A stretch of 64,000 nucleotides of DNA. It comes from Blasia pusilla. Taxonomy: Eukaryota. Below, piece by piece: positions 1-61,462 of the stretch (position 1 is the stretch's first letter; every line of letters begins with the position of its first letter). The position numbers were made by a program, and so were the translations under genes. The DNA lies in the NCBI GenBank assembly GCA_050084515.1, contig CM114271.1:24924001-24988000 (forward strand), read 5' to 3'. The notes below the pieces were generated by a model that saw only the letters and a program-made list of their open reading frames with translations, searched no databases and had not been told where the DNA came from.

Positions 1-78
1 GAGGAACAAATAATCGATCCTATTTTGAAGAGCTTCGCTTTGTGATCGTTAAAACGATAGTCAATCTGAAATCTTCAC

Positions 79-17663: not shown

Positions 17664-17779
17664 GGAGAGGTAGATGGGGCAACCTAGCACTCGGCCTTCT
17701 GATTCGGGCACCCAAGAAGGTGTATAGCATGTAGTAGATGTATAGGGCTACCTGGGAGTTAGAGGGACCTAACCGCCAG

Positions 17780-17791
17780 TTAGGGGGGCGA
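17780..17791 (+). promoter_or_regulatory. Putative polypurine tract (TTAGGGGGGCGA) immediately before repeat B1
   Basis: Purine-rich run directly upstream of B. The same position is seen in copies B and C and in the older relative. Confidence 0.65.
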
Positions 17792-18373: not shown

Positions 18374-18377
18374 AGCA

Positions 18378-30670: not shown

Positions 30671-30674
30671 CATG

Positions 30675-36600: not shown

Positions 36601-39600
36601 TCCACGCAACACCCTCATCCACCTCAACACGTGTAGCGATAACACCCCACGTTCACACAAGCGTGGTGCTAAGCTGAAATACTGGAGCTAAGTCAACTCC
36701 TAAAGCCATCGGCTCCATGGCGAAAATAATGGGGATCCCAACCTTTGAAGTTGCCATCCGCAATCTTTGCATTGGATCTTTGCATCCGTGTCTACTACGC
36801 GATGTAGATGCCTCGATCCCCACTGTTGGCTCAATAGGCTGCCTAGGAACCATGGATGGAGTCTAAGCACCTCAGACAACAAGAATGACCAGGGAAGCCT
36901 AGCTGCCTCCCGGCCTCACCCCTCTGTGGGTCCAACTCCTGAGTAGCACCACGTGGCTCGGCGCTCAAGTGGCTCCTCTAAATAGCTGCGGCTGATGCCT
37001 CAACTTTGTCTTTGCACTCGCCATATAAGAGAGATCATCCCCTCCATAAGAGGTGGAAGCCCCTACTCCCGAACCTGATCTATCTTTGGATACCGACCAG
37101 TAGTAGCCAACTGCTCAAGCTGCTCAATCACGGCGACCATAGGCGACTCTGTCGTAGTGGTAGGGGTAGCCACCGTAGGCTCTCCAACCACTGGTCCACC
37201 TCTACCACCCCTACCACCTCTACCACCTCGGCCTCTCGGAGCTACTCCACCACGGCCACGGCTGATCTCAACTACGGATGAAGATCAAAGCAACGCTCTT
37301 GTGGATGACCTAGTCTCCCAATGATCACACTTGAGTTGGGGCCGATTGAGGCCCATCCTCCAAAGTCCGTCTCCCATCCTCTTGGGACAAAACTTCCTAA
37401 CATGATCACCTCCACATGTCCAACATGATTGTCTTTCTTTGGGGCAGCAAATGAAGGCAATGGTCTCTGCACAAATGTCCCTCTAGGACTTGGATCGAGG
37501 TCGCGTGTACCCCCACGACCCACTACTACTACCACCACCACTACTATGAGGCTGTGAGGTGGGCGGTGAACACGAAGTAGTAGTTGTATCCCCTCTTGAA
37601 TGCGGATGTCACCACTCTCTCCTTCACCATGTTAAGCTCAATCTTCTCAGATAAAGCAAACACATGGGTCAATGTGGGTGAATCATCACTCATAAGAGTA
37701 GCATCACGTACCCTACGGCGCAAATCTCTGTCCAAGATCCCATACCAAAACTGGACTGCTGATCCTCGTCACACACTGGGTAATAGCTGAAATCAAGCGT
37801 CGCATACAGTGTATGCCTCACGAAGACTCTCACGATCTTTCGCTCAAAGTCTGAAGATTCCTCAACTTCTCCGTCTTCACTCCCTGATAGTTCTTCTTCA
37901 AACTCTTGAAGAACTCTGCAACCGGGTTGAACGATGGTGGGGCACTAGTACCTCCACTAGTACCCCCACTAGTACCTCCACTGGTACCCCCATTCCGGCT
38001 CGTACTCGTACCACTCAACGTCGGGCTGGCTGGCATAGTAGGAGCACTACTACCAATACCACCATGGGTGATAGACACATAGCCTGGAGACCAATATTGT
38101 CTCCATGCCTCAATCTCAGCAACATGGTCCTTCCTAAACTCATGGTAATCATCCATGGGTGGTCCTTCAAATCTTTGAAACAACCCCTTCCAAGCCAAGA
38201 AGGGTGTAAACAACGTGGCGTTCGCAACATCTGCATATCACACCACGTATCAAACTCTGCATGAAGTCCTCCAACTCAATGGTGCCCCCTTTGCACCGAG
38301 TATCGTCGTGGGCCCTTCATGGCCCCATATCCACCGTCCATGTCCCAAATCAATGGAGCTGCAACACTCGATAACAACGTAGAAGACTCGGTGTTTGGAA
38401 CACCCTGATCCTCCTCTTCATCAACCGTCGGAAGTGGAAAAGGTAACCGATACCTAAATCCACTCCGTGTGAAACCACCACTGTCCGCACCACGGTCCCC
38501 AACAGACCACCCGACAACTCGTGATGACCAACGCCGATGCCGCACCACCACCAAATTACCCAAGTGCGTCGATGTCGCTCTACTATTGTAGCTCTACTAG
38601 CTATGGGTGTAGGCAATCTAACCTCTCATCACTACAAGAAGCCTCCCACGGTCTACGGGTCATCCCCAGCCCCACTATCGGTAGCACACGGGAGTAACAC
38701 TACTACGGAAATCAGCGTCAACCCTAACAATGGCGCGCAAGCAAAAAGCACGATGGAGGGGATCCAAACACAGGAAGTCCAACGACAACCCTCCAACCGC
38801 AAATGGAAATCAAGGTAACACAATCCACCAAACGTGGTGCCCCCTGAATCCACAAAACCCACCACACAATTCTAACGCAATAGCTACTCCGCGGCGGGTC
38901 GATAACGTACTAGTCGAACTCGCGAGACTGAAAATATCACTGCATGGAGAGGCTACACCGTACTATGCGCTAGAGGTACATCAACCAAAAACCTGAGATG
39001 CATAAAGCGCCTAACACATCTCGAACATCACCAAATGAGCTACAACGGTGTGTACGGCATAGTTAAGAACTCAGCGATTAAGCGTCCTCCAGGCAGAATA
39101 GCCCAAAGATGGGTGACCAGTTATGCAAAACTCAAATCCCAAATCCTGCAAAAATTGCCTCACCTCCAAGCAAGCAAGCTTGCTTGCTTGCTCCTTGCTC
39201 CTTACTCCGCCTCTCACGCACACTCGCCCCGAGCTACCACGAGTTGCCTCGAAGCCTCGAAACGCCGAGACATGCCCCTATCGCCCCGTTCGCCACGCTT
39301 CGCCATGCTTCGCTATGGAGAGAGGTCCAACCAGGGCGCCCCCAACGGGATAGGCGTCTCCAACAATGAACAAGTCACCAACCAACCAGCCCCTCCGATC
39401 CATTTGTCCACCATAGCGGACCTTGAGCTAGTCGCGAAATTTCGATCAAAAATTACTTCACAAATCGTGACCGAAATCAAATCTGTTTCGATCAGAATTC
39501 AATTGACCACCATAGCTATCTCCCCACAAAAACTCAGCTACAACCGAGCTCCGTACTCGAGCTAAAAATCAGACAAACTTCTTTGTCCATACACCTCTAG

Positions 39601-40391
39601 AACCGCCAAATCCCGGCGCTTCCGCCAAGTTTCATGCACGCAGAAATCCATAACGCTCCACGCACTTGAGCGAGATAGCTTCACATGAGATCACAATACA
39701 AGTAGCAATAGGAACCTCTCACCCGATCTGGATGAACTTCAACAGAGCTTCCGACTCCAAGCTCTCCACATCGGAAAAGCGTCGAACCACACGAAGAATC
39801 TTCAATGCTTGATAACTTCCAACTCCCTTGACGAAATCCGCGATCTACAGCGTTGGAAAGCTCTCAGCAAGGCGCTTCTTTCCCAACCAACCACGCACCT
39901 GATTCACACCTCCAACATAGGCAACAAGCTCCGAACATCCACGGCTGAGTACACAATCAGCCCTAACCGAGATCCTCTTGATCTACAATCGAAGCTACCA
40001 TCGATCTACTCCAGTTCTTTGAGTGAAATGCGTGAAAGACCTACTGTCATAAAACACGTTTACAATCACATACAATCGAGCCAAACCCACTCCACGATGG
40101 GAGAATCTAGGTCGAAGCTTGCGGGAAACACCATAGCCAAGAGCTCTACTCACTACCAAGGCTAACTCCCAACGCAAGAGGCTCAACTCAAAGAACTGAC
40201 TGTTCTTTGAGGGCAAGCCACCTTATATCCTCCAACCTAAGAGCGGGCCCTACTGGGAAAGTCACCCCCAAGTGAGTAACCCCCAACCCTATGTATGGAA
40301 CCGCATCTCTACCAAGCCACTACGGTCCTACATAAGGAATGGCCTCTACCAGCACACCATACTCTACGACATAATCCGTATGGTCATGACA
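30675..40391 (-). mobile_element. DNMT-PHD Gypsy copy B, about 9.7 kb, A-internal-B-A-B, many indels
   Basis: Perfect TSD CATG (30671-30674 and 40392-40395). A1 40024-40391, PBS 40013-40023, B1 about 31147-31252, A2 about 30781-31145, B2 30675-30780. All domains are present as fragments. Confidence 0.95.
34750..35695 (-). pseudogene. Copy B DNMT3-like methyltransferase domain, full span but frameshifted
   Basis: Fragments YVYVERDETAQRVSSRHI, EPNADER and CWVKAMDLNCLTWILSLG are collinear with copy C. Confidence 0.85.
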
Positions 40392-44696: not shown

Positions 44697-47600
44697 CCGT
44701 CAATTCACAAAGTTTGTTTTATTTCACAATCAACATTATGAGATTCTGCCATTGGGAAAGTGAGAATGCTCAGGTACGTTTCCAATGAATCCTGGCCTAC
44801 CTGAACTATGGTGGCTATCCATAATTGAGAGCGTGCAATCGCCCCGGATTGTTCCTGCATTTTTTTACGTTGTCAAGGGTGGTGGCCATACTCATTGGGA
44901 TTCTCTCTTGGGCAGCCGTTTCCTCTTATGTGTCTATTGGATTGCGGCTTACGGTCGGGTCTGACTCTCCTCCCCAAGCGGATCTAAATGTAGCAACCCC
45001 GGCTTAGTGTTGTATGCTCTTCCAGGCTTTTGCCGAGCTACCCTAAGTTTTGCTCCAGGATCCCATATTCTCAGTGGCCCGTATACCTTTGTATCACTCC
45101 TCTGCGGCTTTGTGTGTATCTATGTGCTTTCCGCGGCCTGTCGGTGTCCGTGTCATCCACCTTCTTGTCACATGAAAGCGGTAGCCAAAAACACCAACAG
45201 CGACCCACAACAGAAACCTCAATTTGCCCACTCGGCTGTACTTGTTTGTGTGTAAACATCAGGTAACACTTCATGGTTCACCAGGATTTTAATTCACTTT
45301 TATAGAATAGTTGTAAGCCTATCTCTCAACTGTGCGCTTGCCAATAGTACGAAGTGCGTTTTCGAATATCCCCACATTCAACATAAGCGACACCAAATTT
45401 CTTTTTTCAATCCCTGATGCAAACCTGGCTGAATTTTATTTGTATGTGGTGGACAGTGTTAAGCTCATAAGGCAATAGTAGCAATTCTTCAGGTATGTAC
45501 AAGGAGGCCCTATTTTTTCAATCAGGTTTTATCGTTCTTATGTGCTGAGTTTGCTTTTGCTTTGGTAATTCTCTCACTTTCCATCTTCTGTTCATTATGA
45601 ATTTCATACTCTATACAGACACCATCGATGTACGTTCCTTAGATATAGTTTCCGTTCAGCTGTAGGTCTGAATCTTGGCAATGCATCCAGAGCACTTTGA
45701 TTTACGTCTCATAGGCTTCGTTGTCAGTAAAGAATTTAAGGCAGATTTACTTACATTATCACTTTATTCCTTCACGTGATCGATGATGAAGCACCTGCCT
45801 ATCCGTTGTTGCTAAGGTAGTCTATCCATGCGTCATAGTTAACTACTTTCTAACTGACAAACACCCACTACTGTTGAAGTACTGCCTATGGCCAATTGGC
45901 TCAGCTGACTTTGTGGTGGTATTTCAGAATGCACGCAAATGCACGACCCCTCATATAAACTTTTGCACTGCCAATCACTCCTGCACAATATGGCCGTGTT
46001 GCAAACAATGGAAGTAAGTTCCACTTAGTTGACGTAGCCATGTCCAATGGGTTTCAAGCCATGCGTATGCACAGTGGTAAATGTTAAACTAGACTCACTT
46101 GCTCATACTCATGAAGAACTCAGCTCCCACCAACAACATGCCATCGACATTTCTTAGTATTGGCTAAGTGTACACTAAGCGAGTTGCTAAAGGGAGATCT
46201 TACGAAGGTTCTTATACGACAAGCTCAAGAATTCGAGGGTGTTTTCCGGGAGCGCCAGCTGAAATTGTTTCTTTAAAACACCTCCTCAATCATAATTTTT
46301 GTTGGTAATGTTAAAGACCATACCAGATTGTTTCTGTACATTTTTTAGGTCTTAAACTACATTTTCTGGGGGGTTGACAAACCCTCTTGTAACGGAAACA
46401 ACATCAACAACGATAGTAAACGCATAAAAGCTAGATAGTATAAACCTAGTATCAAAACTCGTAGCTACCTGTACAACATTTTAGTCGTATTTCAACGTGC
46501 ACTTATAGATCTTGTTTTTTGAGGCTACTCCTCAATCATTTCTAGTGTTCATATTGTAAAATACCAAACCAAATTGTTTTTGAATATTTTCCAGTGCTAG
46601 TGCTATACCGATGGAGGGGTTAAGCAAGCCCTTTTAACGACAACACCGACGACTGCAGTAAACTGACCATAGTTGGATGGCATTTGCCTAGTATTGAAAA
46701 TCTACAGCTCCTTGTACTGCGTTATAATTCCCTCACTAGCTATGTAAAGCTTCCATTTTTCATAATCAGCCTACAACACACTTGCTTTGTCCAGTCACAG
46801 GTTTATCTGCTGCATGTGGAAGAATTAGAATGCAGAAATGTTAAGTAACATTACAACTGAGTATACCTCAACAACACATTGCAGCACAACACTTACCTTA
46901 ATTTATCTTCACAATTCACCTGAACCTATAATACTCACGACAGTGGTAGTAAAGTCTATAGGACCGTCCAATCAATTCCAAGTACGTGGACACTATAGCT
47001 TACTATGCCAGTTTCAGGATACATAAGCATTGTCAAAACGAGATCATGCTAGCCCTTGAACCTCACGTGAGCCACAATTCACAAGGACTATAGCTGCCCA
47101 TTGCTACACTGATACATTAGTTGCAATACTGTCCCTTCAATTATTCAGAAACAAGTCCGTTCCATTGCTCCGTCATCAATTATTTATTTAGTATAGCACG
47201 CCCATAACATGGTATGGCCTAGAAGGGCTATACAAAACAGATCGATGCTTCTACTAGATAAAGTAAGGTTATGACGGTGCAAACTTCAGGTTGTGAGCAG
47301 GATACCACATTCAGCTAGGCTCCAGAGACAGCATGTATCTACTACTTGGCCTAAAATCGATGTTCTACTTCAGAATTGGGAAACATTTTGCTCAAAACTA
47401 ATTACACAGATGAAATGTTGTGGCTAATGTGGTGATGTATCATATAGTACAGGTCAATTGAGGATGACTATTACAGTGAGTGAAATTTACCCACCTTATG
47501 CACTTTGTAATGCATTCATGATGTCGTGCAAATCCACATCGTCATACAACATACATCGTTGACATACCATACTCACATACATACATAACATAGACGAGAG

Positions 47601-47800
47601 CATACACAAACACAAGTGTACCACAACTCGCCTCCCTAATTGGCGGTTAGGTCCCTCTAACTCCCAGGTATCCCTATACATCTACTACATGCTATACACC
47701 TTCGTGGGTGCACGAATCAGAAGGCCGTGTGCGAGGTTGCCCCATCGTAAGTCACACATCTGTAATCCATATCATGCAATGATCAAGTCATCTACCCCTC

Positions 47801-47941
47801 CTAAGTACATCGAGGACAAACCCACCTTCCAGTAGGAACAACATCCATACGTGGAGTCAAACACATCATGTGCCAACCCCTAGAACACCGATCACACACC
47901 AACATACGGACTGCGTTACCAGTAGACCCACACAACATGCA
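47801..47941 (-). CDS. PHD finger (C4HC3) at the integrase C-terminus of copy C
   Basis: CMLC-x11-CDRC-x4-HMMC...WVCPRC in the same ORF as the integrase core (47801-48535). Confidence 0.92.
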   Translation of the reverse strand, partial: CMLCGSTGNAVRMLVCDRCSRGWHMMCLTPRMDVVPTGRWVCPRCT

Positions 47942-50930
47942 CCTCAAGCTAGCATGTATCATGGCTAAGCTTGGGTCAACACAACCATCCACATTTGGAA
48001 GATGACATGGCGCACAATTACGCACATGGTCCTTCCAAACAACTCTGTCACGACCCTCCAACATGAGAACTCCAGAAGCTAACACCTCTCGCACTCGTAA
48101 AATAGTGCGGCCTGCCATCACATCCAACGTTGTCAGTGCAATCTCTTGCAAATAGACATAGTCTCCCACATGGAACCTACGAATCGATGGTCGATAACCT
48201 CCATCCCGAATGGTTGCATACCGCAACGTATCCGTGTGTTGAGCAATGGCAAGATTCTCAAAGGCTGTTGGCATAACTCTCCGAAAGAGCTCTGCCCGCT
48301 GAGAACACACTCTCATCCACATCTCTGGGTCATCAAGGTTCATCACCTCACAACACTCCCGAAGAATTGCTGCTAGCAAGTCTGGATCTCGGCCGTATAA
48401 CAAAAAATAAGGTGAGAAGGAAGCCAAGGATGCTTGGCAACTGAACCTGTACCCCATGGCTAACCATGGCAACTGAATATCCCAGTCTCCAAGATGCCCC
48501 TTCTGTAGGCCATACTTGTGCAATGCCCTCTTCACCGTCTAAACCACACGCTCAGCCAAACCATCCGCCTCTAGATGATCTCGAGATGTGGTCCGATGAT
48601 CAATCAATGCCTTGTCACACAAGACCTGAAACTCACCCTGAAACTCTATACCTTGGTCGGTCACCACCTGAGCTGGTGCACCAAAATGACTAAGCACTCT
48701 ATCAATAAACGTATACGCCGTCCCCTCACTTGCCTTGTCAAGTAATGCCACCAACTCAATCCACTTGGAGAAGTGCTCCACCATCACCAACACATATTGA
48801 TGATGTCGTCTAGTCAACGATAACAGTCCCGCAATGTCCACACTCCAATGTTAGACCCAACCCCATAATAGGCAAGGGGTGTAACTGTAGTGTTGGGGCA
48901 TTAAATGATGCCCTCACCCGGTCACAAACCATACAACGTGACACCAACTACTGCACCTGAGTATGTATGCCACACCACCAATACTGGCCAAGAGTAAGCT
49001 ATACGTACGCTTTACCCCAAAATGTCCCAACTCCTCATGGGCATGTCGCACAATGCGCTCTCTCTAAGCCAAATGCGGTACCACCCGTACTCTACCATCC
49101 TCCCACACACGGAGAATATGTGTTCCCTCCACTCGATACCTCATAGCACGTTGAAGAACACGGTCTCGCTCCTTGGCACTCATTGTGCCTGATACCCTAC
49201 TGGTCCGTAGGAACTCCAACACCAACGCATCATCATAAATATCATGTTGATCCGTACCATCAACTCCAACCTTAGGATCTGAAGACTGGCCATCTACCCT
49301 CTTACTAGAGCAAGATGTCATGTGGTCCTCCATACTAGAGTCCACCCCTAACCAACATAAAAAGGCAGATGCATGCCAAGTAGCATCAACCTGGCACCAT
49401 CTCCTCATCAACCTCGCCATTCCAAGTAGCCCCAGTTGCATCCTCTTGGCTAGTACATGGGTTCCTACTCAACCCATCAGCATCGAGGTTGGCAACTCCA
49501 GGTCTATGTACCACTTGGAAGTCATACTCATGTAAGATAAGAGCCCACCGTGCAAGCTTCCATGTAAGCTTGTTAGACTCCATCAACCACTTGAGAGGCT
49601 GGTGATTAGTAATAAGGGTTAAGTGTGTGCCAAACAAGTAACACCTAAAGTGTGCCACAACCCACACTACTGCCAAGCACTCTCCCTCATATGAACTATA
49701 GCGCGACTCCGCTGCATTATTCGAACGACTTGCATACGCCACCACAAACTCCATGTGCTCATCATCATGTTGTGTCAACATTGCTCCAAGTCCCAACATA
49801 CTCCTATCAGTGTGCAACTGAAATGGGCGCCCTCTGATAGGTCTCCTCAAGATAGGCGTAGCCACCAACTCGGCCTTGAGCTCCACAAAAGCTCTCTCTT
49901 GATCATCTCCCAAGTGCCACTCCTGATCTGATTTCAGAAATTGGTTCAAAGGCTTTGCCATACACTAAATCCCTTCACATACCTCCGATTGTAGTTCACC
50001 AATCCCATGAATGCCCGAAGTCTACTCACATCTATTGGACGAGGAATAAGTGCAATAGCCTCCACCTTTGCTTGTTGAACTCCCAAACCATTTGGATAGA
50101 TCACATGACCCAAGTACTCAACATCCTCATGGAAGAACTTACACTTTCCTGGATGCAAACGTAGACCATGAGCTTTCAACCGCTCAAACACCATCTGCAA
50201 ATGTATCTGATGCTCCTCCACCGTGTTACTGAACACCAAGATATCATCAATGTAACACCGAACAAAATCCAATCCTGCTAGGATCCTGTCCATCACTCTC
50301 TGAAACTCGACAGGTGCATTCTTCAACCCAAAGGGTAAGAATTTCCACTGGTACAAACAATCCTTGCCATGAGAGTTGACACCCCAAAATGTTGTCTTGG
50401 CCTTGTCACTCTCCCGAATCGGCAATTGATGGTATCCTGCCCGGAGATCCAAAGTACTGAAAATCTTTGCCTGTCCCACCACATCAAAGATCTTCTCAAG
50501 TGTAGGCATGGCATACCTATCGGCCTTGGTTTGCCGATTGATAGGACGGTAATCTCCACACATCCGCCTATCCGTGTAGTTGCCATGCATATCTTTTTTT
50601 AGCATGACACGGTGGGCGATGCATACTCTCCATGCAACAACTCCACTAATCCAGCCTCCAAAAGGTCCAACTTCCTATTCTGAATCAGGTCCCTCTCCAT
50701 ATCACTATATCGGTAGGGACGACGGAAGATTGGCGTATCACTAGCCAAATCAATCCGTATACCGGGTCCAACCAGAGAACCCAACTCCTTCATGCTAAAG
50801 GCAAAACAACTCCTATAAGCACGTAGGAACTGTGTCAAGCGTCGTTTCTCACCTCCCGTAAGCTTGGGTCCAAGTAATGGCTCCCAAGTCTCCTCCACTG
50901 GCACACTAGAGGGAGAGGACGATGCCATTG
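47942..50930 (-). pseudogene. Copy C reverse transcriptase, RNase H and integrase
   Basis: ORFs 49946-50605 (YIDD), 49386-49961 (RNase H), and 48539-48841 plus 47801-48535 (DDE core: VDIAG, VTDQG, GLAER). Confidence 0.95.
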
Positions 50931-51174
50931 GCAGCTACGCAACCCCCTCACAAGATGGTAGACCCTTAGCTACACCATCATCGAGCAAATAACTCCTCCA
51001 CCAAAGATGAGCAACCAACTCCACATGCCCACCATTACATCCCATTTACTCCAAGGATGCAAAATACTACTCTCCTCGCCCCCAACCGATGCCTCTACCG
51101 TCCCGGTAGCCATCGAGCTCATTACAATGGGTGGAAGACCCACAGACATAGTCCGAAGTCGACGCTGCGCGCTC

Positions 51175-52130
51175 GGCCATACCAAGACTCAAAATCCAAG
51201 TCAAACAATTCAGGTCCATGGCCTGACCCAACACATCACGTCGTAAAGCCTTAGAAATGGAAGCAACCGCTGTCACACCAGTAGCAAATCCCATCGCATG
51301 CTCTCTCTCATCAGCGTTAGGCTCCACCAACTGTCGCACATGAGAATCCCATACAAGCCCCGGACCACCTTCCGTGTATGCATGTGATGAGGGAAAACTC
51401 ACAAATGTGGGTAGTGCCATCCTAGGCTGGCCCACACGGTTCACCACTGCCATGGGTGACCGATCAATAACCCTCACCACCGAGAACGCCGCCAAAGATC
51501 AAGATACTATCCTTTCGTAAGGCAAGGATCCCGATGCACTGCATCATATCCTCGATGTAGAACCTCCCTAGGCAACAAGTTTGTCCACCACAAGCGTGGA
51601 CGATGTGCACGCGAGCCAACTCGCGCTGCATCCAACAACACCGCTGGTCCAATCCAAGACCGCAGCTCATGAACACTCGCCATCATCCGGGTCCGAGTGT
51701 CACCCAACAATGGAACATTCTCCAGAATGTAAGCTAGAGCATGTGCCTAATGAACCTGAAGATGTCGTAACACCCGTAATATCTCCCAAAACAATCGAGA
51801 CCTAGGGTCGTGTAATCCCTCACCACGACCAGCACGTGTATGACCCTGACATGGTCATCCAGCAATCACCAAATCCACAGGACCAACCCTCTCAAGGTCT
51901 TGCGCCCCCAACAATGCAATGTGTGACGGCAAAGCACGCTGGTACCCACGAATAGCTGATGGCGGCAACAACTCATGATATCTCCGCATCAACTAACCAA
52001 TATGTCGGGATGAGACTCTCTGGGCCGTCTCATATCGCTCCACATACACGTATCTCCGCACAGGAATACCGGCCTGCAATTTTGCAACCAAACCAGTGCT
52101 AATCCCACCAAAGAGATCTAACACACAAAT
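51175..52130 (-). pseudogene. Copy C complete DNMT3-like C5 cytosine methyltransferase domain with in-frame stops
   Basis: Motifs in canonical order: VLDLFGGISTG (I), DLVIAG*PCQG (IV), ILENV (VI), AHRPRLWWTN (VIII), EREHAMGF (IX), RRDVLGQAMD (X). Confidence 0.93.
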
Positions 52131-52559
52131 GCCCTCCGGTGGATACTGCCATACAATGGTGTAGTATTCAAAGGGGATAACCCAACTGGACCAGAAGTAA
52201 AAGTCCGCCGTGGGGCCTCCTCTTCCTCGTGAGGTATAACACCCTCACACCAAGCCTCCTGCACTAGGCAAGCAGCCTCCTGCCGTAGTGCACCGCCTGA
52301 ACTCCAAAGTGGCACATCCAACGATGAGGATACCATTGCTGCAATACTAGGGACCTCCTCTACCTCCTCATGCAGAGGAGAATCCATAGCAGAAATGGTA
52401 CCCTCCAAAAAGTCTCTTGGCCAAGTGACTTCTCCACTAAAACCAACCACATATGCTAACACTGTTGGGGAAGACCCTCCTGGTTGAGCCCAATAAATAA
52501 ATCTCACAGGAACCTGGCTCATACGTCCATCCCCAGACTGCCAACCAGGTCTATAAGAC

Positions 52560-54800
52560 GCTGTCTCAATCCAGTAGTCCATCTAAAAACCCATCGGGTA
52601 CAATACTGCTCCTCCAACTAGTACATCATATGACTTGGCCGATGTGACCACTGTAGGTACTCCCAACCTGGAGCTATCAATCGCATCATATGGTCTCAAC
52701 TATACAGAAAACTTCCCCCGTGTCATGAAATGAGACCTATCATTGGCACCTCCAAGTGATGTCTGAATTTGGAATGGGCAAGGCTCAAGCTCTGACCTCC
52801 GAATACCCAAACCAATACATGTTGCCTTTCCCAACATCAAAGGTTGGGCACCAGAGTCTAACAAGACTCTATCTCGTCTATACACTTGTCTTGTAGGACT
52901 CACCAATCGGAATATGCCACTCCGGTTGTCCAACATACATACACCAGGTGTAAGCCTCTCACGATCAATGGCTGGCCGGGCTGGTAATGCATCCATCTTC
53001 GCCGCTGCTGCCTGCCAAGTAGCACTGGTACTCAATGCTACACCTGACATAGAGGGTCGCTCCACCGCAACACCCTCATCCACCTCAGCACGTGTAGTAG
53101 TAACATCCCCACGTTCACACAACGTGGCTGCTAGCTGAAATACAGGAGCTAAGTCAACTCCTAAAGCCATCAGCTCCGTGGCCGAAAACAATGGGGATCC
53201 CAACACTGAAGTTGCCATCCGCAATACTGCACTGGATGTTGCATCCGTGTCTACTACACGCGATGTAGATGCCTGAGTCCCCACTGTAAGCTCAATAGGC
53301 TACGTAGGAACCATGGATGGCGTCCTAAGCACCTTAGACAACAAGAATGACTGGGGAGCCTAGCCTGCCTCCCAGCCTCACCCCTCTGTGGGTCCAACTC
53401 CACAGTAGCACCACGTGGCTTTGACGCCCAAGTGGCTCCTCTCATAACTGCAACCAATGCCTACACTTGTGGTGCACTCGCCATATAAGAGAGATCATCC
53501 CCTCCATAAGAGATGGAAGCCCCTGCTCCCGAACCCGCTCTATGCTGGATACCAGCCATAGTAGCCAACCTCTTCTCCAACTGCTCAATCCTGGCAGCCA
53601 TAGCTGACTCTTTTGTAGTGGTAGGAATAGCCGCCGTAGGCTCTCCAACCACTGGTCCACCTCTACTACCCCTACCACCTCGGCCTCTCGGAGCTACTCC
53701 ACCAACGCTGCGGCCTGATCTCAACTCTGGATGAAGATCAAAGAAATGCTCTCGAGGATGACCTCGTCTCCCGCAATGATCACACTAAGTTGGAGCTGAC
53801 TAAGGCCCATCCTCCAAAGTCCATCTCCCATCCTCTTGGGGACAAAACCTCCTAACATGATCACCTCCACATGTCCAACATGACTGTCCTTGCTGCGGGG
53901 CAGCAAATGAAGGCAATGGTCTTTGCGCAAACGTCCCTCTAGGACCTAACTGAGGTCGTGTGGACCCCCCACGACTCCCACTACTACTACCACCACCACT
54001 ACTACAAGACTATGAGGTGGACTGCTGAACACGAGAAGTAGTAGTTGTATCCCTACTGAATGCGGATGTCACCACCCTCTCCTCCACCATATTAAGCTCA
54101 ATCTTCTCAGATAGAGCAAACACATGGGCCAATGTGGGTGAATCATCACTCATAAGAGTAGCATCACGTACCCTACGACGCAACTCTCGCTCCAAGATCC
54201 CATACCAAAACAGGACTGGGTGAGCCTCAGTCACACCCTGGATAACTGATATCAAGCATCGCATACGAGTGTATGCCTCACGAAGACTCACCAGTCTTTC
54301 GCTCAAATTCCTGAAGACTTCTAAACTTCTCTGTCTTCACTTCCAGATAGTTCTTCTTCAACCTCTTGAAGAACTCTGCAACCGGGCTAAATGATGGTGG
54401 GGCACTAGTACTTCCACTAGTACCCCCGCTGGTACCTCCATTGGTACCCCCACTCCGGATCGTACTTGCACTACTCAATGTCGGGCTGGCTGACACAGTA
54501 AGAGCACTACTACCACTACCACCATGGGTGATAGACACATAGCCTGGAGACCAATATTATCTCCATGCCTCAATCTCAGCAGCATGGTCCCTCCTAAACT
54601 CATGGTAATCATCCATGGGTGGTCCCTCCAAGTGATGAAACAACCCCTTCCAAGCCAAGAAGGGTGTAAACAACGTGGTGTTCCGCAACATCTGCATATC
54701 ACACCACATATCAAACTCCTGAATGAAGTCCTCCAACTCAATGGTGCCCACTGCACCCGAGTATCGTTGTGGGTCCTTCATGACCCATACATCTTGTCCA
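52560..54800 (-). pseudogene. Copy C gag and aspartic protease
   Basis: ELEDFIQEFDMWCD, zinc knuckles and VLLDSGAQ. Confidence 0.9.
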
Positions 54801-54955
54801 TGTCCGAAATCAATGGAGCTGCAACACTCGATAACAATGTAGAAGACTTGGTGTTTGGAACACCCTCGTTCTCCTCTTCATCAACGGTCGGAAGTGAAAA
54901 AGGTAGCCGATACCTCAATCCACTTCGTGTAAAACCACCACTGTCCGCACCACGG

Positions 54956-55372
54956 TGTCGTATAGTAAAATCAACAAGTATGTAAATTCCTTCGTCATTA
55001 AGTGTTAGATAGAGTTTCATTAGTATTAAGTAAATTGGCTTAGAAAAAGGAAATTCTTATGTTTAAACCTCTTTAGGGTGCCTCTTTTATGCGGGCCTAA
55101 CTTTACAAAAGGAGGTAATAAATAAAAGATGACTTTATAAAAGTAAAGTAGTTGCTTTAATGAAAAGCGAAAGCAGTCTTGGTTGGTGGCTAGGTTAGTT
55201 GGGGTACTTTGGAAAATATCAAGTAGGTAAAAGAGGATATTTTGGAAGAGATAAGAGGAAATCTATTTCTGTCAAAATGTGATTGGCTAAGCCTTGAGAG
55301 GAAGCCATGTGGCACAAGATAAGATAAGCTCTATTTCATACTCTTGTGGATCCCTTGTGAGTATATAAAAAG
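54956..55372 (-). mobile_element. Truncated fragment of the second-family LTR nested in copy C's leader
   Basis: Reverse-complement similarity to about 44290-44696. One intact end (TGTCGTATAG); the other end is lost together with about 250 bp of host sequence. Confidence 0.85.
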
Positions 55373-57929
55373 AAAGCAAGAAGCAACGATGGAGGGGATC
55401 CAAACACAGGAAGTCCAACGACAACCCTCCAATCACAAATGGAAGTACAAAACGGAAATCAAGGTAACACAATCCACCAAACGTGGCACCCTCTAAATCC
55501 ACAGAACCAACCACACAATTCTAACGCAATAGTTACTCCGCCGGTGGTCGATGACGTGCTAGTCGCACTCGCAGCACCTGAAAATGTCACCTGCATGGAG
55601 AGGCCACACCGTACTCTGCGCTAGAGGTCCATCAAACGAAAACCCGAGATGCATAAAAGCGCCTGACGCATCTCCAAATAACACCAAATGAGCTACACCA
55701 GTGTGTACAATGGCATAGTTAAGTACTTAGCAATTAAGCATCTTCCAGGCAGAATAGCTCAAAGATGGGTGACCAATTATGCAACACTCAACTCACAAAT
55801 CGTGCAAAAACTGCCTCACGTCCAAGCAAGCAAGCTTGCTTGCTTGCTCCTTAATCCTTACTCCGCCTCTCACGCCCACTCGCCCCGAGCTACCACGAGT
55901 TGCCTAGAAGCCTTGAAACACCAAGAAATGCCCCTATCGCCACGCTTCACTATGCTTCGCTATGGAGAGAGGCCCAACCAGGGCGCCCCTAGCGGGATAG
56001 GTGTCTCCAACAACGGACGAGTCACCAAACGCCGAGAAATTCTCGAGACATGCCCCTATCATCCCGTTCGCTATGCTTCGCTATGCTTTGCTATGGAGAG
56101 AGGCCCAACCAGGGCGCCCCCAGCGGGATAGGCCTCTCTAACAATGGACAACTCACCCTTCGATGTGCTGTCCACCATAGCCAGACCTTGAGCTAGTCCG
56201 CAAAATTTCAACCAACGATTTCTCCACAAATCCTCAACCAAAATTGAATTTTTTCCAACCAAAATTCAATTGGCCACCATAGCTACCTCTACACAAAAAA
56301 TCAGCTACAACCGAGCTTTTTACTCTGAGCTAAAAATCAGACAAACTTGTTGTCCATACACTTCAAGAATCGCAAATCCGACAGCGCTTCCGCCCAGATT
56401 CATGCACACAGAAATCTGCAACACTCTTTCACCATAGCAGCAATCCGCTCCACACACTCAAGCAGATAGCTTCACATGAGATCATAGTAGAGGTAGCAAT
56501 AGGAACCTCCAACCTACAGAGCTTCCACACTCCAAGCTCTCCACATCAGAAAACCGTCCAACACGAACCACAATCTTCAATCTTTGATAACTTCCAACTC
56601 CCTTGACAAAATCCACCGATCTAAAGTACATTGGAAAGCTCTCAAAAAGGTGCTTCTTTCCCAACTAATCATGCACCAAATCCACACCTCTAACATAGGC
56701 CATAAGCCACGAACATCCATGGATGAATACACAATCAGTCTAACCACATCCTACTCATCTATGATCGAAGCTACCATCGATCTACTCCAATTCTTTGAGT
56801 GAAATCCGTGAAAGACCTATTGTCATAAAACACATATAGAATCACATAAAATCGAGCCAAACCCACTCCACGATGGGAGAATCCAGGTCGAAGCTTGCGG
56901 GAACCACCATAGCCAAGAGCTCTACTCACTACCAAGGCTAACTCCCAACGCAACAGGCTCAACTCAAAGAAATAATTGTTCTTTGAGTACACTCCACACT
57001 ATATCCTCCAACCTAAGGGCGGGCCCTACTGGAAAAGTCACCCTCAACGGAGTAACCCCCAATCCTATGTATGAAACCGCATCCCTACCTAGACACTACG
57101 GCCCTACATAAGGTATGGCCTCTACTAGCACACTATACTCTACGACATAATCCGTATGGTCATGACAATGACCCGTTATGTCATACCATCTCATGGAAAA
57201 TTTTACGTATATGCCCATTTCCTGAATGGAAATCAAAATACATCCCAAAATGTGTACATGACACCTGCATATATTCGCGTGATGTACTAAATTTTGAGCC
57301 GCTTTACCTTCAATTTCTTTCCATAGTTGATTCTAGATTAGGTATAGAGACAAAATAAAATGGGTTTCATAGTGGTTTTTTCCTGGTTGACTCACTTATT
57401 GATTGCCCCCTTATTGGCTGGAATGTCTCATTGCCACTTTCAACAGACCCTAATTTCCTTTACAGAAAAATAAGGAGTGTTTTACTAGTGAATCTCAGGG
57501 TTAATCAATTGTACTCTCAGTACGTTCCCTTGATAGAGCTTCCTAATCCAACCTGTGGTCTTATTATTATGCCTTCGTCCTCTTTTAAATCCATTCTAAG
57601 GGCGTCATGAGACAAGGGTCAGGTCACGCACAGTATGAATATTGATCCGTAGACTATAGAGCTTAATGTTCTGCAAGATGTTCCATATACACTTCTAGTA
57701 AAAAAAAGGCATTCCTTTGATATTTTCCACATGGCAGTATATTCCTAAGGGAGCAAGCCCACACTAGAGAACAATTTTTTAGTGACAATAATGGCATATC
57801 ACCGGATACCAAGCTCACTATTGAGACTGGAAAATTCCCATTTCTCTTCCCGTATCTTCGAGGTTTTTTTACGGGGCACTATTCTTTTGCCGACTACCTT
57901 CGCAATCAGACAAGACTACTGTTCAACGT

Positions 57930-58260: not shown

Positions 58261-58734
58261 TGTCATGACCATACGGATTATGTCGTAGAGTATGGTGTGC
58301 TGGTAGAGGCCATTCCTTATATAGGACCGTAGTGGCTTGGTAGAGATGTGGTTCCATACATAGGGTTGGGGGTTACTCACTTGGGGGTGACTTTCCTAGT
58401 AGGGTCCGCTCTTAGGTTGGAGGATATAAGGTGGCTTGCCCTCAAAGAACAGTCAGTTCTTTGAGTTGAGCCTGTTGCGTTGGGAGTTAGCCTTGGTAGT
58501 GAGTAGAGCTCTTGGCTATGGTGTTTCCCGCAAGCTTCAACCTAGATTCTCCCATCGTGGAGTGGGTTTGGCTCGATTGTATGTGATTGTAAACGTGTTT
58601 TATGACAGTAGGTCTTTCACGGATTTCAGTTGTGGTACACTTGCGTTTGTGGATACTCTCGTCTATGTTATGTATGTATGTGCGTATGGTATGTCAGCGA
58701 TGTATGTTGTATGACGATGTGGATTCGCACGACA
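58261..58734 (+). mobile_element. Solo terminal unit A (58261-58628) + B (58629-58734) of the DNMT-PHD Gypsy family
   Basis: TGTC...GACA termini with perfect TSD ACTT, inserted in the Rep FLTLT motif of Helitron-2. Confidence 0.95.
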
Positions 58735-61462
58735 ACTTACCTCTGATGAGGTCTCTGGTACCAAATGGCCTGAAATTCTGCTCATTGAGGAGGTGCTAAA
58801 AAGGATAAACCCTGCATTCATATGGTACGACGCACCAGCTGAGTGCACTATACTCTTTCACACTAGGCTTAAGAAATTTCTCCAGGCCTATGTATTAGGT
58901 GGATCTTGCATTCTTGGCACTGTGCACAACTACTTCATCAGGTATAAGCTCCAGGGTAGGGGAAGCCTACAATCCCACATTATCATGTGGGTCGACAAAA
59001 AAGATGTCCGTAGGGTCACCACAGAGATTTGCTGCTATATTCCTCGGCTCAATTGTTCTATAGACGGCAACCATATTCAGTATTCGGCACTTCATAAACT
59101 ACACCACTATGTGACTACTAAACAGATGCACTCTTGTAGCCAGGGCGGTTGTATTGTTGGTGCAACAAGGGACCATGCTCCATATTGTCATATGGGCTTC
59201 CCGTCTGCCACAAATACTGAACTAGATCCATTAATTTATCCAAAATATCTCAAGTGGACCTACTATAGGCCAAGGCATGAGGACTGTAATGTTATTCCAT
59301 ACCACCCCGTTGTTCTACTGCTTTGGGGGGCCCATATGAACTTGCAAAGAGTAACAAATGTACAGTGGTCCTTTTATCTATTGAAATGTGAACCCCAGGG
59401 CGCCCTTAACATTACTATAGAGTGTGCAAAACCTCTTAGAAGGCTTAGATGAGACAAGGTTGCGATTAGTTTCTGGTGTTTTGCTAAACCTCCATGTATC
59501 ATCCACCGAAGCTGCTCTCACCACACTAAGAATCCCAATTATACAAAGGTCTCAAGGGGTACAGTATATAGATTCCAGCCCATCCCATAGACAAACAACA
59601 CTGTATAGGAATGCAACAACAATATGTATACACACAACTACGTTGTATTTCCATAGGCCTCAGTGCTTATCTCAAATGACTTTCATTCAGTTTTGGACTC
59701 ACCATGACCTTGTAAAGCTCAGAACAGGTAATGTAAAAAAATTCGTTGGACTTGATATGATAGGAAACTGGGTGACACAGATAGGCTTGTCCGATTCACT
59801 TAGTACCACCCCTTGCACCAATGGAATGAATTTTTTCATTCCACACTCCTTGATAATATATGTTTTAGAGTTGAGGCTGAAATCTTAACTATATCCTCTC
59901 CTAGTTGGACTTATTTACATGAGTGCATATTCAGAAAAATATTTAAGATAATTTCTTGTGTAGTAGACCAAATACAAAAACATGCAGAAGCTAACCTCTG
60001 GAGTGAGGTACATATAAGTGAAGTAATCTCTAAGACACTTGACATCATAAAGCCAAATCTTCAATTTGACACCCTTCCATAGACATTTTCTAAAAACTCC
60101 GCTACTTCAAATATATCAAACGTGCCGTCTGCTCCTGATATAGACTCACTATTTCCAGTGGAAGTACTCAATGCAAAGCAACTCCGTTTATATGAAAATA
60201 TTAGGTTGCTCTCGTTTGGATTGGTGTTGATAACAGGCCCGCTCGGGTGTGGCCAAACCTATTTTATTCATTTCCTGCAGTCCTATTGGGCAAAGAAGGG
60301 TATCCCTACACTATTCTCAGCCACCACTCGTATTGCGGCCATTAGACTGCATTCCACAACAGTAATTGTCCACTCAACATTTGGCATACCGCTCACAGGT
60401 GATTTTCCCTCCATGCATTCAGCTTCAGACTAGTATATTCGCATTAAGAATGCTGGAGTTGTCGTTATCGATGAGTGCTCGATGCTGACAACCAAATTGC
60501 TACAGATAATTGCTATGCGCTTACACCAAGTATGCCCATCCTCCACCGATGCTTTCTCCACCAAGCTTGTAATAATATTAGGTGATCTATGTCAACTCCC
60601 CCTTGTTTGCAAGCATAAAGAGAAGCCATTTTGCACATTGTGTTATATCTCTTCTTCTCCATTCTATTCAACAGCCATTAGATATGAATTGACCACACCA
60701 ATGAGACACGCAAATGATCCAGACTTTCTGAAGTTTCTATCAGATATCAAGACTACTTGTCCACTGCAAACACACATAAGCCAGTGTCTTCACACTTGTT
60801 ACATTGATTAGGACAGAGCGCTAGATTTTATTGATGAAGACACCTAGATTATATGCACGCATCGTGTCGATGTTCAAGTATTCAACCTCATCACACTAAG
60901 GAGACTATTTGGCGTAGTTGAGATAATCCAGGTTAACATATCTATAGATGCCCTACCTGACCCCCAATTTACCAAATGGATATCTGATCAGACATTCCAT
61001 CAATTAGACTTCCTTGCTATAGGTTGTAGGGTTCTTCTCACTTCTAATGTGGACATAGGCATTCATGCAGCAAACGGTGCATCTGCAACTGTTGTTGATT
61101 ATATCTACAAGAATGACGAGTTGACATTTATTCTAGTTCGTCTACAATTGAACGATGCACTATTGAGAATAAGTAGAACAAACTTTGTACATTCAGACAT
61201 GGTCCAGATGAAAAATACCACAAAAGGACGTTTCCCCTTGTTCTAGGTAATGCAATGACGGTCCACAAAATCCAGGGTCTCACTGTTGCGGAAAAATGCG
61301 TCCTACACGATAGATCAACTTTTGCTCCCGGTCTTGTATATGTAATGTTGTCACGTGTCAAGTGTAGATCAACACTACAAATTCTTGGAAACCTTGTCCC
61401 TGGAAATTTCTCAGTGTTTGGCAAGGACCCTTGATTTAGCTCACACTACCAAGTTTCACACA

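Follow-up and report, generated by a model that had tools for sequence, protein, structure and literature searches.

A pseudogenised DNMT3-like methyltransferase domain in a split-repeat Ty3/Gypsy-type retrotransposon of the liverwort Blasia pusilla

The stretch of Blasia pusilla DNA analysed here (the window, 64,000 nucleotides; contig CM114271.1, positions 24,924,001 to 24,988,000) contains, at 52130-51175 on its minus strand, a C5 cytosine methyltransferase domain of about 320 codons. Very probably, this segment is the pseudogenised DNMT3-like domain of a split-repeat Ty3/Gypsy-type retrotransposon, a land-plant member of a 'Gypsy-DNMT3' group whose active copies would use the enzyme in the manner proposed below. 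The specific mechanism (a Gag-protease-DNMT precursor, stop read-through, cDNA methylation and PHD-guided insertion), taken by itself, has in our estimation somewhat less than an even chance of being right. The window contains three copies of the element, designated A, B and C, all of which are dead, and none of them can encode the enzyme. The features of copy C, followed by those of the other copies and related segments, are:

47522..57167, minus strand: copy C, of the form A-internal-B (without A2-B2), found by self-BLAST, with TGTCATG...CACGACA ends and the 4-bp target-site duplication (TSD) TCAT
56800..57167, minus strand: repeat A1 of copy C, about 368 bp, TG...CA
53767..53880, minus strand: two gag CCHC-type zinc knuckles of copy C (CWTCGG..., CDHCGR...), from motif positions; zf-CCHC is matched in the relative P0014
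52847..52864, minus strand: protease active-site motif LLDSGA of copy C, from the motif
51175..52130, minus strand: DNMT3-like domain of copy C, with in-frame stops at 51995, 51857, 51749 and 51509 and a frameshift at about 51483
50935..50937, minus strand: conserved in-frame stop TAG (then CTG CCA) at the ORF1/ORF2 boundary of copy C
50099..50578, minus strand: reverse transcriptase (RT) of copy C, RVT_1, Pfam E 2.1e-32, with YIDD at 50243-50254
49524..49910, minus strand: RNase H of copy C, Pfam RT_RNaseH, E 5.3e-32
48584..49066, minus strand: integrase of copy C (H2C2 zinc domain and rve core), rve E 1.8e-10, Integrase_H2C2 E 8.9e-4
47807..47941, minus strand: PHD finger at the integrase C-terminus of copy C, Pfam PHD, E 1.3e-9
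47522..47629, minus strand: repeat B of copy C, with the end ...CACGACA
9937..18374, plus strand: copy A (A1 9937-10304, internal, B1 17791-17895, A2 17898-18267, B2 18268-18374)
14257..14631, plus strand: N-terminal third of the DNMT domain of copy A (motifs I and IV, three stops), with a deletion junction at about 14620
30674..40388, minus strand: copy B (A1 40388-40024, internal, B1 31253-31146, A2 31142-30781, B2 30781-30674), TSD CATG
34770..35740 (approximate limits), minus strand: DNMT domain of copy B, with three stops and at least five frame changes
58261..58735, plus strand: solo A-B unit within a Helitron-like ORF, TSD ACTT
27704..30259, minus strand: gag-protease remnant from a family that is related but more diverged, tblastn identity 38-53%

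The original prediction, made from the letters of the window, placed here a methyltransferase domain of about 320 codons with motifs I to X in unpermuted order, and both the motif positions and the profile search agree with it. In copy C the order is I, IV, VI, VIII, IX, X. Motif I (LDLFGGI) starts at 52121, motif IV (G*PCQG, where TGA replaces the W codon) lies at about 51857, motif VI (ENV) at about 51728 and motif VIII (RAHRPRLWW) at 51611; motifs IX and X (REHAMGFATGVT, GQAMDLN) follow in another frame and continue to about 51193. All of the catalytic motifs (F.G.G, PC, ENV, R.R, IX and X) are therefore represented in copy C, over two frames. The Pfam DNA_methylase profile, which had been proposed as a check, matches above its cut-off: with stops read as X, PF00145 gives E 1.1e-8 and 35.3 bits against a cut-off of 22, the best-matching part covering only profile positions 62-120 of 324.

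The prediction had also preferred a DNMT3-like to a DRM-like enzyme, and comparison with solved structures favours the same choice. In a phmmer search of the PDB, the window protein P0001 matches DNMT3A colinearly over query residues 11-217 (E 1e-12), and the other methyltransferases score far lower (DRM2 5e-4, HhaI 1e-3, DNMT2 4e-3). The match to DRM2 is partial and permuted, query residues 8-134 being aligned with chain residues 225-350. DRM identity was rejected because DRM enzymes are circularly permuted and the element domain is not. For an intact Marchantia relative (P0297), all 25 PDB matches at E<=1e-3 are DNMT3A/B/C, with which motifs I-VIII and IX-X align colinearly. A cluster search with residues 1270-1620 of another database relative (P0004) was less specific: the top protein cluster is DNA_methylase, with 57 members, eukaryotic and most commonly from Streptophyta. 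The profile match and the comparisons with solved structures support the assignment of the window domain as a putative DNMT3-like, unpermuted C5 methyltransferase that is borne by a retrotransposon between its protease and RT.

As had been claimed, the domain occupies the same position in three of three window copies, but the copies differ in completeness: relative to a guide of 316 residues, copy C covers 315 (with four in-frame stops and one frameshift), copy B 294 and copy A 125. Copy A, which is inserted in a Helitron-like element, lost motifs VI-X in a 0.9-kb deletion between TTACGGG.GGTG microhomologies, and its motif IV, GWPCQG, is intact as reported. Copies A and C retain an intact PC, copies B and C an intact ENV, and no single window copy keeps the frame open. 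Most of the stops in these copies are one C>T or G>A change away from the codon of a relative. Of the 34 related loci of at least 8 kb, only six contain any ORF of at least 400 aa. The prediction further described a remnant of the domain in an older family. That family is indeed represented by the gag-protease homologue at 27704-30259, but the methyltransferase part is weak: a search of 25000-27900 returned only chance-level matches, and the motif-I-like VFGGINT (seven residues, at about 27536-27556), which lies at the expected offset, has by itself an E-value of 8.8.

The element shows the Ty3/Gypsy order gag-protease-RT-RNase H-integrase with an rve integrase, both in copy C and in the related locus L032, the protease being recognised from LLDSGA and from sub-threshold Pfam matches (Asp_protease_2 in the relatives P0014 and L032, scoring 22.0 and 22.4 bits where the cut-off is 24.3). 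Two identical flanking LTRs are not found; instead, its repeats are split as A1-internal-B1-A2-B2. Repeat A alone is LTR-like (TG...CA), yet the right end of the element is B2. This A-internal-B-A-B layout occurs in copies A and B and at loci L017, L054 and L060. Among 11 loci examined for repeats, the complete A...B-A-B was present in three, L001 has A1 and A2 and ends at A2, and none of these repeats was seen in the other seven within the available stretch. The solo A-B unit at 58261..58735 is the product expected from recombination between A1 and A2.

The element termini are TGTCATG...CACGACA, and 4-bp TSDs flank copy B (CATG), copy C (TCAT), the solo unit (ACTT), L017 (CATA), L054 (GGTC) and L060 (CCAA); the flanks of copy A (AACA/AGCA) differ by one mismatch. 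Such TG...CA ends and 4-bp duplications are as expected of a DDE integrase. A DIRS element was considered and rejected, since rve and Integrase_H2C2 are found, TSDs are present and no tyrosine recombinase was detected: Phage_integrase has no match in copy C (three frames, stops read as X, E<=0.01) or in either ORF of L032.

The coding organisation is seen most clearly in L032, which has ORFs of 1369 aa (a weakly matched protease and DNMT) and 1047 aa (RT, RNase H, integrase and PHD) in one common frame, separated by a single TAG. A stop is present at the homologous position in 27 of 30 copies (a group at >=70% identity, obtained by protein-anchored extraction), and the ends of five Marchantia gene models lie no more than one or two residues away from it. 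The family layout is thus ORF1 with gag, protease and DNMT, an in-frame stop, and ORF2 with RT, RNase H, integrase and PHD, the PHD finger being at the same position after the integrase in L032 and in the type-2 relatives. Read-through of the ORF1 stop is suggested by the conservation of that stop. The tobamovirus-type read-through motif is CAR-YYA, and the context found here, CAA-CCC, is only a partial fit to it. This layout corrects one part of the original prediction, namely that the enzyme would be packaged with RT and integrase. Because the DNMT domain ends ORF1, before the conserved stop and RT, it would be made with Gag, and a single polyprotein that joins it to RT and integrase would not be obligatory.

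Among the matches listed, the nearest ones that carry a species name are 13 gene models of Marchantia polymorpha, all uncharacterised, which share 55-74% identity with the window domain. PF00145 is found in seven of the eight models scanned, nine aligned models are 82-96% identical to one another, and the one model that was read through has every DNMT motif intact. No mention of six of the Marchantia gene identifiers was found in the literature searched. In metagenomes, 598 stretches matched the search pattern; 375 of them proved to be related to the query (gag-protease-DNMT), and 80 of these 375 were kept. All six motifs survive in the five that were compared, each motif being altered in some copy by scattered substitutions or a stop. 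Eukaryotic transposable-element proteins of this family also occur in bins labelled bacteria. Green-algal elements (Cymbomonas tetramitiformis, Haematococcus lacustris and EukProt transcriptomes) have a different order, RT-RNase H-DNMT-integrase-PHD.

The prediction had named neutral evolution of the domain as an outcome that would count against it, and the between-family comparison shows constraint instead. Between copy C and five sister-family loci, dN/dS of the DNMT domain is 0.21-0.24 (bootstrap CIs within 0.16-0.33; 298-306 codons), as estimated from pseudogene copies at a dS of about 0.75. For this calculation, P0341 served as the guide, HSPs were picked by local identity, and codons that were stops or aligned poorly were left out. 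The same pairs give 0.17-0.24 for gag, 0.28-0.33 for the protease region and 0.14-0.21 for RT-RNase H. Between copies C and A of the window, the DNMT value is 0.78 (CI 0.32-1.91).

Trees were calculated from 30 DNMT rows and 23 RT-RNase H rows, both sets being without K. nitens or host DNMT3 sequences. They share their major groups, for which support is given first with DNMT and then with RT-RNase H: the liverwort-type clade (100 and 99), the RT-RNase H-DNMT-integrase-PHD clade (98 and 100) and the P0014 group (97 and 99). Since dN/dS of the DNMT domain is like that of gag and RT and the two trees agree in this way, the domain is an integral part of the element, has co-diverged with RT and has evolved under purifying selection. 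Insertion of a nested host gene was rejected on the grounds that the position of the domain does not vary among copies and clades and that it has co-diverged with RT.

Relatives of the element are also present in RNA. Three raw-read runs gave 4530, 4760 and 4988 reads that map to the element, and in three bins over the domain (50940-52121) the depth is 39-76 with the first mate on the plus strand and 0-5.4 with the first mate on the minus strand. By the usual library convention, the first mate on the plus strand apparently corresponds to the sense strand of the element. Only 51-76 of the approximately 4500-5000 reads per run are at least 99% like copy C, so the RNA comes mostly from other copies.

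For active copies, we propose that the enzyme would be made within a Gag-protease-DNMT precursor, and hence in Gag-like amounts, and that RT and integrase would be obtained only via read-through of the stop. The enzyme would enter the particle with Gag and methylate the new double-stranded cDNA or the fresh insertion, and the new copy would reach the genome with host-like 5mC already in place. The PHD finger fused to the integrase would read histone H3 tails and choose the chromatin for insertion. On a larger scale, the element may belong not to a single capture confined to Klebsormidium but to an ancient group of split-repeat Ty3/Gypsy elements that spans the green lineage, combines a DNMT3-like writer with an integrase-borne PHD reader and has persisted into land plants; we give this reading somewhat less than an even chance. 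In its liverwort branch, each particle would be loaded with many DNMT molecules via the leaky stop and the cDNA would be marked before integration, and Marchantia polymorpha may carry young copies with an open gag-protease-DNMT frame. Self-methylation of the cDNA is a hypothesis already proposed by de Mendoza et al. 2018 (PMC5890265).

The enzyme could also act on host chromatin, either at the target site and its flanks after integration or at other loci, with the PHD finger directing it, and either hide the element among methylated gene bodies or heterochromatin or keep its competitors silent. DNMT and PHD indeed occur together in the window element and L032, as well as in 27 of 40 proteins that are at least 600 aa long and have the other domain order (DNMT between RNase H and integrase); in addition, placement in ORF1 predicts an abundant enzyme that the protease could release from Gag, and effects on the host epigenome are discussed in the available text of de Mendoza et al. 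(PMC5890265). However, the PHD finger lies on the ORF2 integrase polypeptide and the DNMT domain on the ORF1 polypeptide, so reader and writer are not physically fused in this family, and the sequence has no feature that separates action on host chromatin from cDNA methylation. We consider this reading unlikely, though well worth keeping in mind beside cDNA methylation, our preferred target.

It is improbable that the domain no longer methylates DNA and instead methylates the element RNA or has a structural or nucleic-acid-binding role in the Gag-protease precursor. Its position in the gag-containing ORF1 would suit such a role, for which the ORF1-borne DNMT of SymbioLINE, reported to give no DNA methylation in yeast and discussed with RNA methylation in mind, is a precedent in the published text (PMC5890265), and motif IV reads E-C rather than P-C in nine of 17 aligned family members. 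The liverwort-type clade, however, retains P-C, ENV and, in motif VIII, R.R; among solved structures DNMT3A/B are nearest (E 1e-12), with the RNA enzyme DNMT2 only at 4e-3; and both halves of the domain are constrained (dN/dS 0.17-0.29). As for the domain being a passenger, a piece of host DNMT3 drifting neutrally in one subfamily without any role in the life cycle, the stops and frameshifts in all window copies and the loss of two thirds of the domain in copy A might suggest it, but RT, gag and integrase are equally decayed in the same copies, the between-family dN/dS has CIs that exclude 1, the domain and its motifs are kept across clades only 25-45% identical and the major groups are common to the DNMT and RT trees, which leaves this idea with hardly any credibility.

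The Marchantia polymorpha relatives would make the proposed mechanism testable in a tractable model plant, for which transformation, host methylation-pathway mutants and published methylomes exist. In particular, placement of the domain in ORF1 before a conserved stop yields a testable prediction on stoichiometry and packaging. Such elements encode the class of enzyme that hosts use to silence them, and a survey of plant methylation machinery can mistakenly count their DNMT domains among host 'DNMT3' genes.

Published DNMT-bearing retrotransposons come from dinoflagellates and a single charophyte alga (PMC5890265), and the same kind of element is now placed in a land plant. The prediction that such domains are not standard in land-plant Gypsy clades is in line with the plant LTR-retrotransposon reference survey, the available text of which is without such a domain, contains no occurrence of methyltransferase, PHD or Marchantia and lists no PHD-bearing clade (PMC6317226). 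No DNMT-bearing Gypsy element of liverworts or other land plants was found in print, subscription journals and supplements lying outside the search, and the searched literature likewise yielded no description of a DNMT-ending ORF1, the conserved stop, the integrase-PHD or RNA reads of the family.

Compared with known systems, the catalytic domain is closest by sequence to that of cellular DNMT3 (animal DNMT3A/B/C), with colinear motifs I-X. The window element, however, has neither PWWP/ADD nor the plant DNMT3 companion domain, and its domain is placed after gag-protease. With DRM it shares a distant homology of the catalytic fold (E 5e-4) but not the circular permutation. In chromoviruses, a chromatin reader is likewise fused to the integrase C-terminus, which suggests integration targeting, but that reader is a chromodomain rather than a PHD finger.

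The green-algal elements have the same DNMT family (30-41% identity) and a PHD finger after the integrase; their DNMT domain, however, lies between RNase H and integrase rather than between protease and RT, and the DNMT and RT trees each set them apart as a clade of their own. No description of this green-algal group was found in the papers searched. SymbioDIRS-Dnmt3 of Symbiodinium resembles the window element, as far as its published text goes, in having a DNMT3-like domain in a retrotransposon ORF and A-coding-B-A-B repeats (PMC5890265), but it has a tyrosine recombinase and a DIRS-type RT, whereas the window element has rve, TG...CA ends and 4-bp TSDs.

The most similar system is KnitGypsy-Dnmt3 of Klebsormidium nitens, the repeats of which are described in the available text as A-coding-B-A-B 'as in a DIRS element' (PMC5890265). 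Like the window element, it has the Ty3/Gypsy domain set, an unpermuted DNMT3-like domain in the coding region and evidence of purifying selection (published Ka/Ks < 0.2, compared with 0.21-0.24 here), and a rooted tree in the same source places the K. nitens element DNMTs with DNMT3, according to the legend of Fig. 4a. Its host is a charophyte alga and that of the window element a bryophyte, probably a liverwort; by sequence this assignment is soft, since over its full length the phosphatase gene shows 64-70% identity to liverworts and 66% to a moss. The proposed kinship is drawn from architecture and repeat layout, and no row named K. nitens occurs among the 120 matches listed. The capture is described there as specific to the K. 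nitens lineage (PMC5890265), and the spread across relatives seen here argues for a wider occurrence. The window element is therefore less novel than first rated, since its kind has already been published as KnitGypsy-Dnmt3, including the A-coding-B-A-B repeats; by virtue of this shared layout, it is a land-plant member of a published kind and not a new kind.

Self-comparison of the window yields three copies (A, B and C) that are mutually 88-93% identical and therefore represent one element, of Ty3/Gypsy type. They form three blocks with a G+C content of about 50% and strong strand skew. The features used below are as follows.

Features of the window
9937-18374, + strand: copy A, full A1-internal-B1-A2-B2 form
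9937-10304: repeat A1 of copy A
17731-17790: G-rich run of copy A
17791-17895: repeat B1 of copy A, separated from A2 by the spacer AC
17898-18267: repeat A2 of copy A
18268-18374: repeat B2 of copy A
30674-40388, - strand: copy B, repeat layout as in copy A
47522-57167, - strand: copy C, form A-internal-B
47807-47941: PHD finger on the integrase C-terminus of copy C (Pfam)
50937-50935, - strand: conserved in-frame stop of copy C, TAG
58261-58735, oriented opposite to copy C: solo A-B unit
64-3886, - strand: purple acid phosphatase gene, about seven exons with short introns

The window has no host gene other than the phosphatase. One exon of this gene best matches Riccia fluitans (78%, the top phosphatase match), Marchantia polymorpha (73%) and Calypogeia fissa (71%), and the entire gene is 64-70% identical to liverworts, 66% to a moss, 61% to Selaginella and 62% to Nymphaea. 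Together with the M. polymorpha origin of the nearest named element relatives (see below), these matches point to a bryophyte host, probably a liverwort, and apparently to none of the species just named, since 78% was the ceiling of phosphatase identity.

The original prediction placed a cytosine methyltransferase domain of about 320 codons at 51175-52130, and six-frame translation of copy C agrees with it. The minus strand reads motif I (...ICVLDLFGGISTG...), motif IV (...VIAG*PCQGH...), motif VI (...ILENVP...) and motif VIII (...RAHRPRLWWTN...), and past a frameshift near 51483 a second frame continues with ...PTFVSFPSSHAY...EPNADEREHAMGFATGVT...LGQAMDLNCLTWI, that is, motifs IX and X, to about 51193. 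A Pfam scan of a three-frame translation of the entire copy C, with X standing for stops, bore out the domain as DNA_methylase (PF00145; E 1.1e-8, 35.3 bits against a cut-off of 22), together with RVT_1 (E 2.1e-32), RT_RNaseH (E 5.3e-32), rve (E 1.8e-10), Integrase_H2C2 (E 8.9e-4) and, beyond the integrase, a PHD finger (E 1.3e-9). The same three-frame scan found no tyrosine recombinase in copy C.

Among solved structures, the first 233 residues of the copy C domain (P0001) best matched DNMT3A/B/C (E 1e-12 to 3e-9), colinear across query residues 11-217; DRM2 matched only residues 8-134, at the far end of its chain (E 5e-4), which is the permuted arrangement, and HhaI and HaeIII (E 5e-5 to 1e-3) and DNMT2 (4e-3) also matched. 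With P0297, an intact M. polymorpha relative, all 25 PDB sequences matched at E<=1e-3 were DNMT3A/B/C, and its motif IX-X stretch has the same order as theirs. Because the matches of both queries favour DNMT3A/B/C and are colinear, the domain appears, at the sequence level, to be DNMT3-like rather than DRM-like, as predicted. Motif IV reads W-E-C-Q, not the usual P-C-Q, in 9 of 17 aligned family members; the liverwort-type clade keeps P-C.

Decay was scored by aligning the codons of each copy to a Marchantia guide protein with 316 domain residues.

Decay of the DNMT domain
Copy C: 315 guide residues covered, 226 identical, 4 in-frame stops (Q>TAG at 51995 and 51749, W>TGA at 51857, TAG at 51509), 1 frame change
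Copy A: 125 covered, 87 identical, 3 in-frame stops, 0 frame changes
Copy B: 294 covered, 152 identical, 3 in-frame stops, at least 5 frame changes

The low coverage of copy A is due to the loss of 0.9 kb between two TTACGGG.GGTG microhomologies, which fuses motif IV to the RT leader; the GWPCQG reported for this copy is intact. The RT-RNase H regions are likewise disrupted by frame changes, and all three copies are unable to encode the enzyme. As for the remnant claimed in an older family (27704-30259), the gag-PR homologue is real, and its supposed DNMT remnant is a 7-residue match without significance.

The coding layout is clearest in L032, the one intact locus, on a metagenome contig. ORF1 (1369 aa) contains an aspartic protease (weak match) and DNA_methylase (E 1.8e-13), and ORF2 (1047 aa) contains RT, RNase H, integrase and PHD; the two share one frame and are split by a single TAG (5083-5085), followed by CAG TTA. 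TAG or TAA stands at the corresponding position in 27 of 30 liverwort-type copies (all but copy B and the loci L007 and L050), in most cases with CAA CCC after it. Five Marchantia gene models end within 1-2 residues of this stop, and one "splices" across it. The conserved single stop therefore makes DNMT the final domain of a gag-PR-DNMT product: the domain does lie in a retrotransposon ORF, as had been proposed, but it is not internal to one obligatory polyprotein. The TAG/TAA is possibly a read-through stop, by way of which RT-IN would be made. The integrase-PHD arrangement also occurs in L032 and in most elements of the order RT-RNaseH-DNMT-INT-PHD.

Copies A and B show the split direct repeats in full, with A1 and A2 95.4% and 96.2% alike, respectively. 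The metagenome locus L017 has the same layout, and so do L054 and L060 from a clade that shares only 30-34% protein identity. The termini, TGTCATG at the start and CACGACA at the end, are constant across clades. Target duplications of 4 bp (CATG, TCAT, ACTT, CATA, GGTC, CCAA) were seen; copy A is flanked by AACA/AGCA. The internal B1/A2 junction, ...CACGACA-AC-TGTCATG..., resembles the two ends of the element joined. Directly upstream of B1, not of A2, both clades have a run rich in G and resembling a polypurine tract, TTAGGGGGGCG or CTGGGGGGGG (L017 17087-17146; L054 14988-15047; L060 15014-15073), and a conserved CTCAAAGAA follows A1 in liverwort-type copies. Of the three structural forms in the window (full element, A-internal-B and solo A-B), the latter two are the outcomes expected of B1xB2 and A1xA2 recombination, respectively.

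In addition, the window contains two Helitron-like elements (9233-9658 with 18305-21662, - strand; 57721-61243, + strand), both with a Helitron N-terminal region and PIF1-type helicase ORF fragments. Within these lie copy A and the solo A-B unit, each inserted into one of the two and at a different point.

A profile-free exhaustive search of representative proteins gave 3280 matches at E<=1e-3, 553 at <=1e-10 and 23 at <=1e-30. Among the best 150, 64 were at least 600 aa long; their domain order, checked by Pfam on 5, was (gag-)PR-DNMT(-RT-RH-INT), as in the window, in 10, RT-RH-DNMT-INT(-PHD) in 40, and DNMT alone or with gag only in 14. A profile search gave 122 matches at E<=1e-10, with names listed for 120. 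Among the matches listed, the nearest named relatives of the element are all from M. polymorpha, with 13 gene models (including Mp_4g09160, Mp_8g17980, Mp_6g11220 and MARPO_0063s0090) that are 55-74% identical to the window domain. The nine Marchantia models aligned are mutually 82-96% identical; PF00145 was found in 7 of the 8 scanned, and P0297, the sole model read through, has all motifs intact. Rows with the second order (RT-RNaseH-DNMT-INT-PHD) come from Cymbomonas tetramitiformis, Haematococcus lacustris or EukProt transcriptomes; this group (P0016, P0023, P0028, P0389 and others) is the larger, and its named rows are green-algal. Two family polyproteins or fragments, P0291 and P0163, are filed in public records under the bacterial bin names Minisyncoccia and Betaproteobacteria, which looks like mis-binning of eukaryotic retrotransposon proteins.

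A scan of metagenome contigs matched at least 598 stretches. Confirmation succeeded for 375, and the 80 loci retained share 52-69% (51 loci), 39-49% (4) or 30-34% (25) identity with the Marchantia protein. The best 25 are 75-80% identical to copy C DNA across 3.8-7.7 kb and decayed, as is copy C. Only 6 of 34 loci of at least 8 kb have any ORF of at least 400 aa.

Selection was estimated between copy C and five sister-family loci by Nei-Gojobori counting on guide-mapped codons, with a bootstrap over codons; the counts leave out stop codons and any codon whose neighbourhood shares less than 30% identity with the guide. With dS about 0.75 and every compared sequence a pseudogene, dN/dS was 0.21-0.24 for DNMT (298-306 codons; CIs within 0.16-0.33), 0.17-0.24 for gag, 0.28-0.33 for the protease region and 0.14-0.21 for RT-RNase H. 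The domain belongs to the element and evolved under selection. Both its halves are constrained (0.17-0.24 and 0.23-0.29), and the third surviving in copy A, compared with two loci, gave 0.18-0.26. Between the window's own copies C and A the value was 0.78 (CI 0.32-1.91), as expected of decay following insertion.

The trees rest on a hand-picked subset of 24 of about 400 proteins, the translations of two ORFs, and four read-through DNA copies; they come from a quick IQ-TREE search, and branch support is by SH-aLRT. The DNMT tree (30 rows) joins copy C, three metagenome loci and four Marchantia models with support 100, and unites the second-domain-order elements at 98. Both groups come back in the RT-RNase H tree (23 rows), at 99 and 100. 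The P0014 group (97 for DNMT, 99 for RT-RNase H) and the pairs P0028+P0044 and euk302+P0110 also recur, and the position of L054 differs. The shared groups indicate that DNMT has long been carried along with RT; since the trees are unrooted, they do not indicate the origin of the domain.

Three RNA raw-read runs, labelled with the organism of the best-matching DNA run, were mapped onto 47000-58800 at 90% likeness. With about 6%, 12% and 12% of the respective runs used, 4530, 4760 and 4988 reads mapped, of which only 76, 51 and 67 were at least 99% alike. Reads with the first mate on + predominate over the element (depth 39-76 in the three DNMT bins, 50940-52121, against 0-5.4 in the other orientation), and the ratio is reversed over the oppositely oriented solo A-B; under the usual stranded-library convention, the reads are sense-strand RNA of the element. 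Depth climbs toward the 3' end, and the B/A junction is spanned by 8, 20 and 7 reads at 57167/8>47522 and by 42, 55 and 52 at 58734>58261. That organism thus transcribes the family, chiefly from copies other than copy C.

Some reads skip 1008 bases at 48273-49282, with 9 other letters between (16-38 reads per run), or 6524 bases at 48191-54716 (4-5 per run). Both skips have non-canonical ends and probably reflect transcription of family members with internal deletions, not splicing. Copy C 54880-55373 shows a sharp peak of opposite-orientation reads (106-199x) and many loose ends at 54956; this stretch, which may be a nested small repeat, varies between copies and recurs in opposite orientation at 44282-44850 (+).

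The observation is real and the DNMT identification right, and the kind of element is already known. Our literature search found no description of a DNMT-bearing Gypsy element in liverworts or any land plant, and no paper naming any of six Marchantia gene identifiers searched for. In the accessible portions of the sources, a plant LTR-element reference survey (PMC6317226) says nothing of a methyltransferase or a PHD domain, and a 2026 preprint and a 2025 paper mention only streptophyte Gypsy-DNMT3 or retrotransposon DNMT3 "as previously reported". The text available from de Mendoza et al. 2018 (PMC5890265) describes Dnmt3-type domains within the Pol ORF of a Gypsy element of Klebsormidium nitens, with key residues kept, Ka/Ks <0.2 and repeats arranged as in a DIRS element, gives that layout for SymbioDIRS as "A-coding region-B-A-B", and proposes cDNA self-methylation. 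Our best-supported guess is likewise that the Gag-linked enzyme would methylate the element's own cDNA. Where chromoviruses have a chromodomain at the integrase C-terminus, the window element has a PHD finger. What it adds is the placement of DNMT in ORF1 ahead of a conserved stop, together with this PHD finger, and evidence of long-term selection on the domain and of transcription. The element has the architecture that defines KnitGypsy-Dnmt3, a likeness in domain composition and repeat layout, and with its Marchantia relatives it carries the published Gypsy-DNMT3 kind into a land plant.
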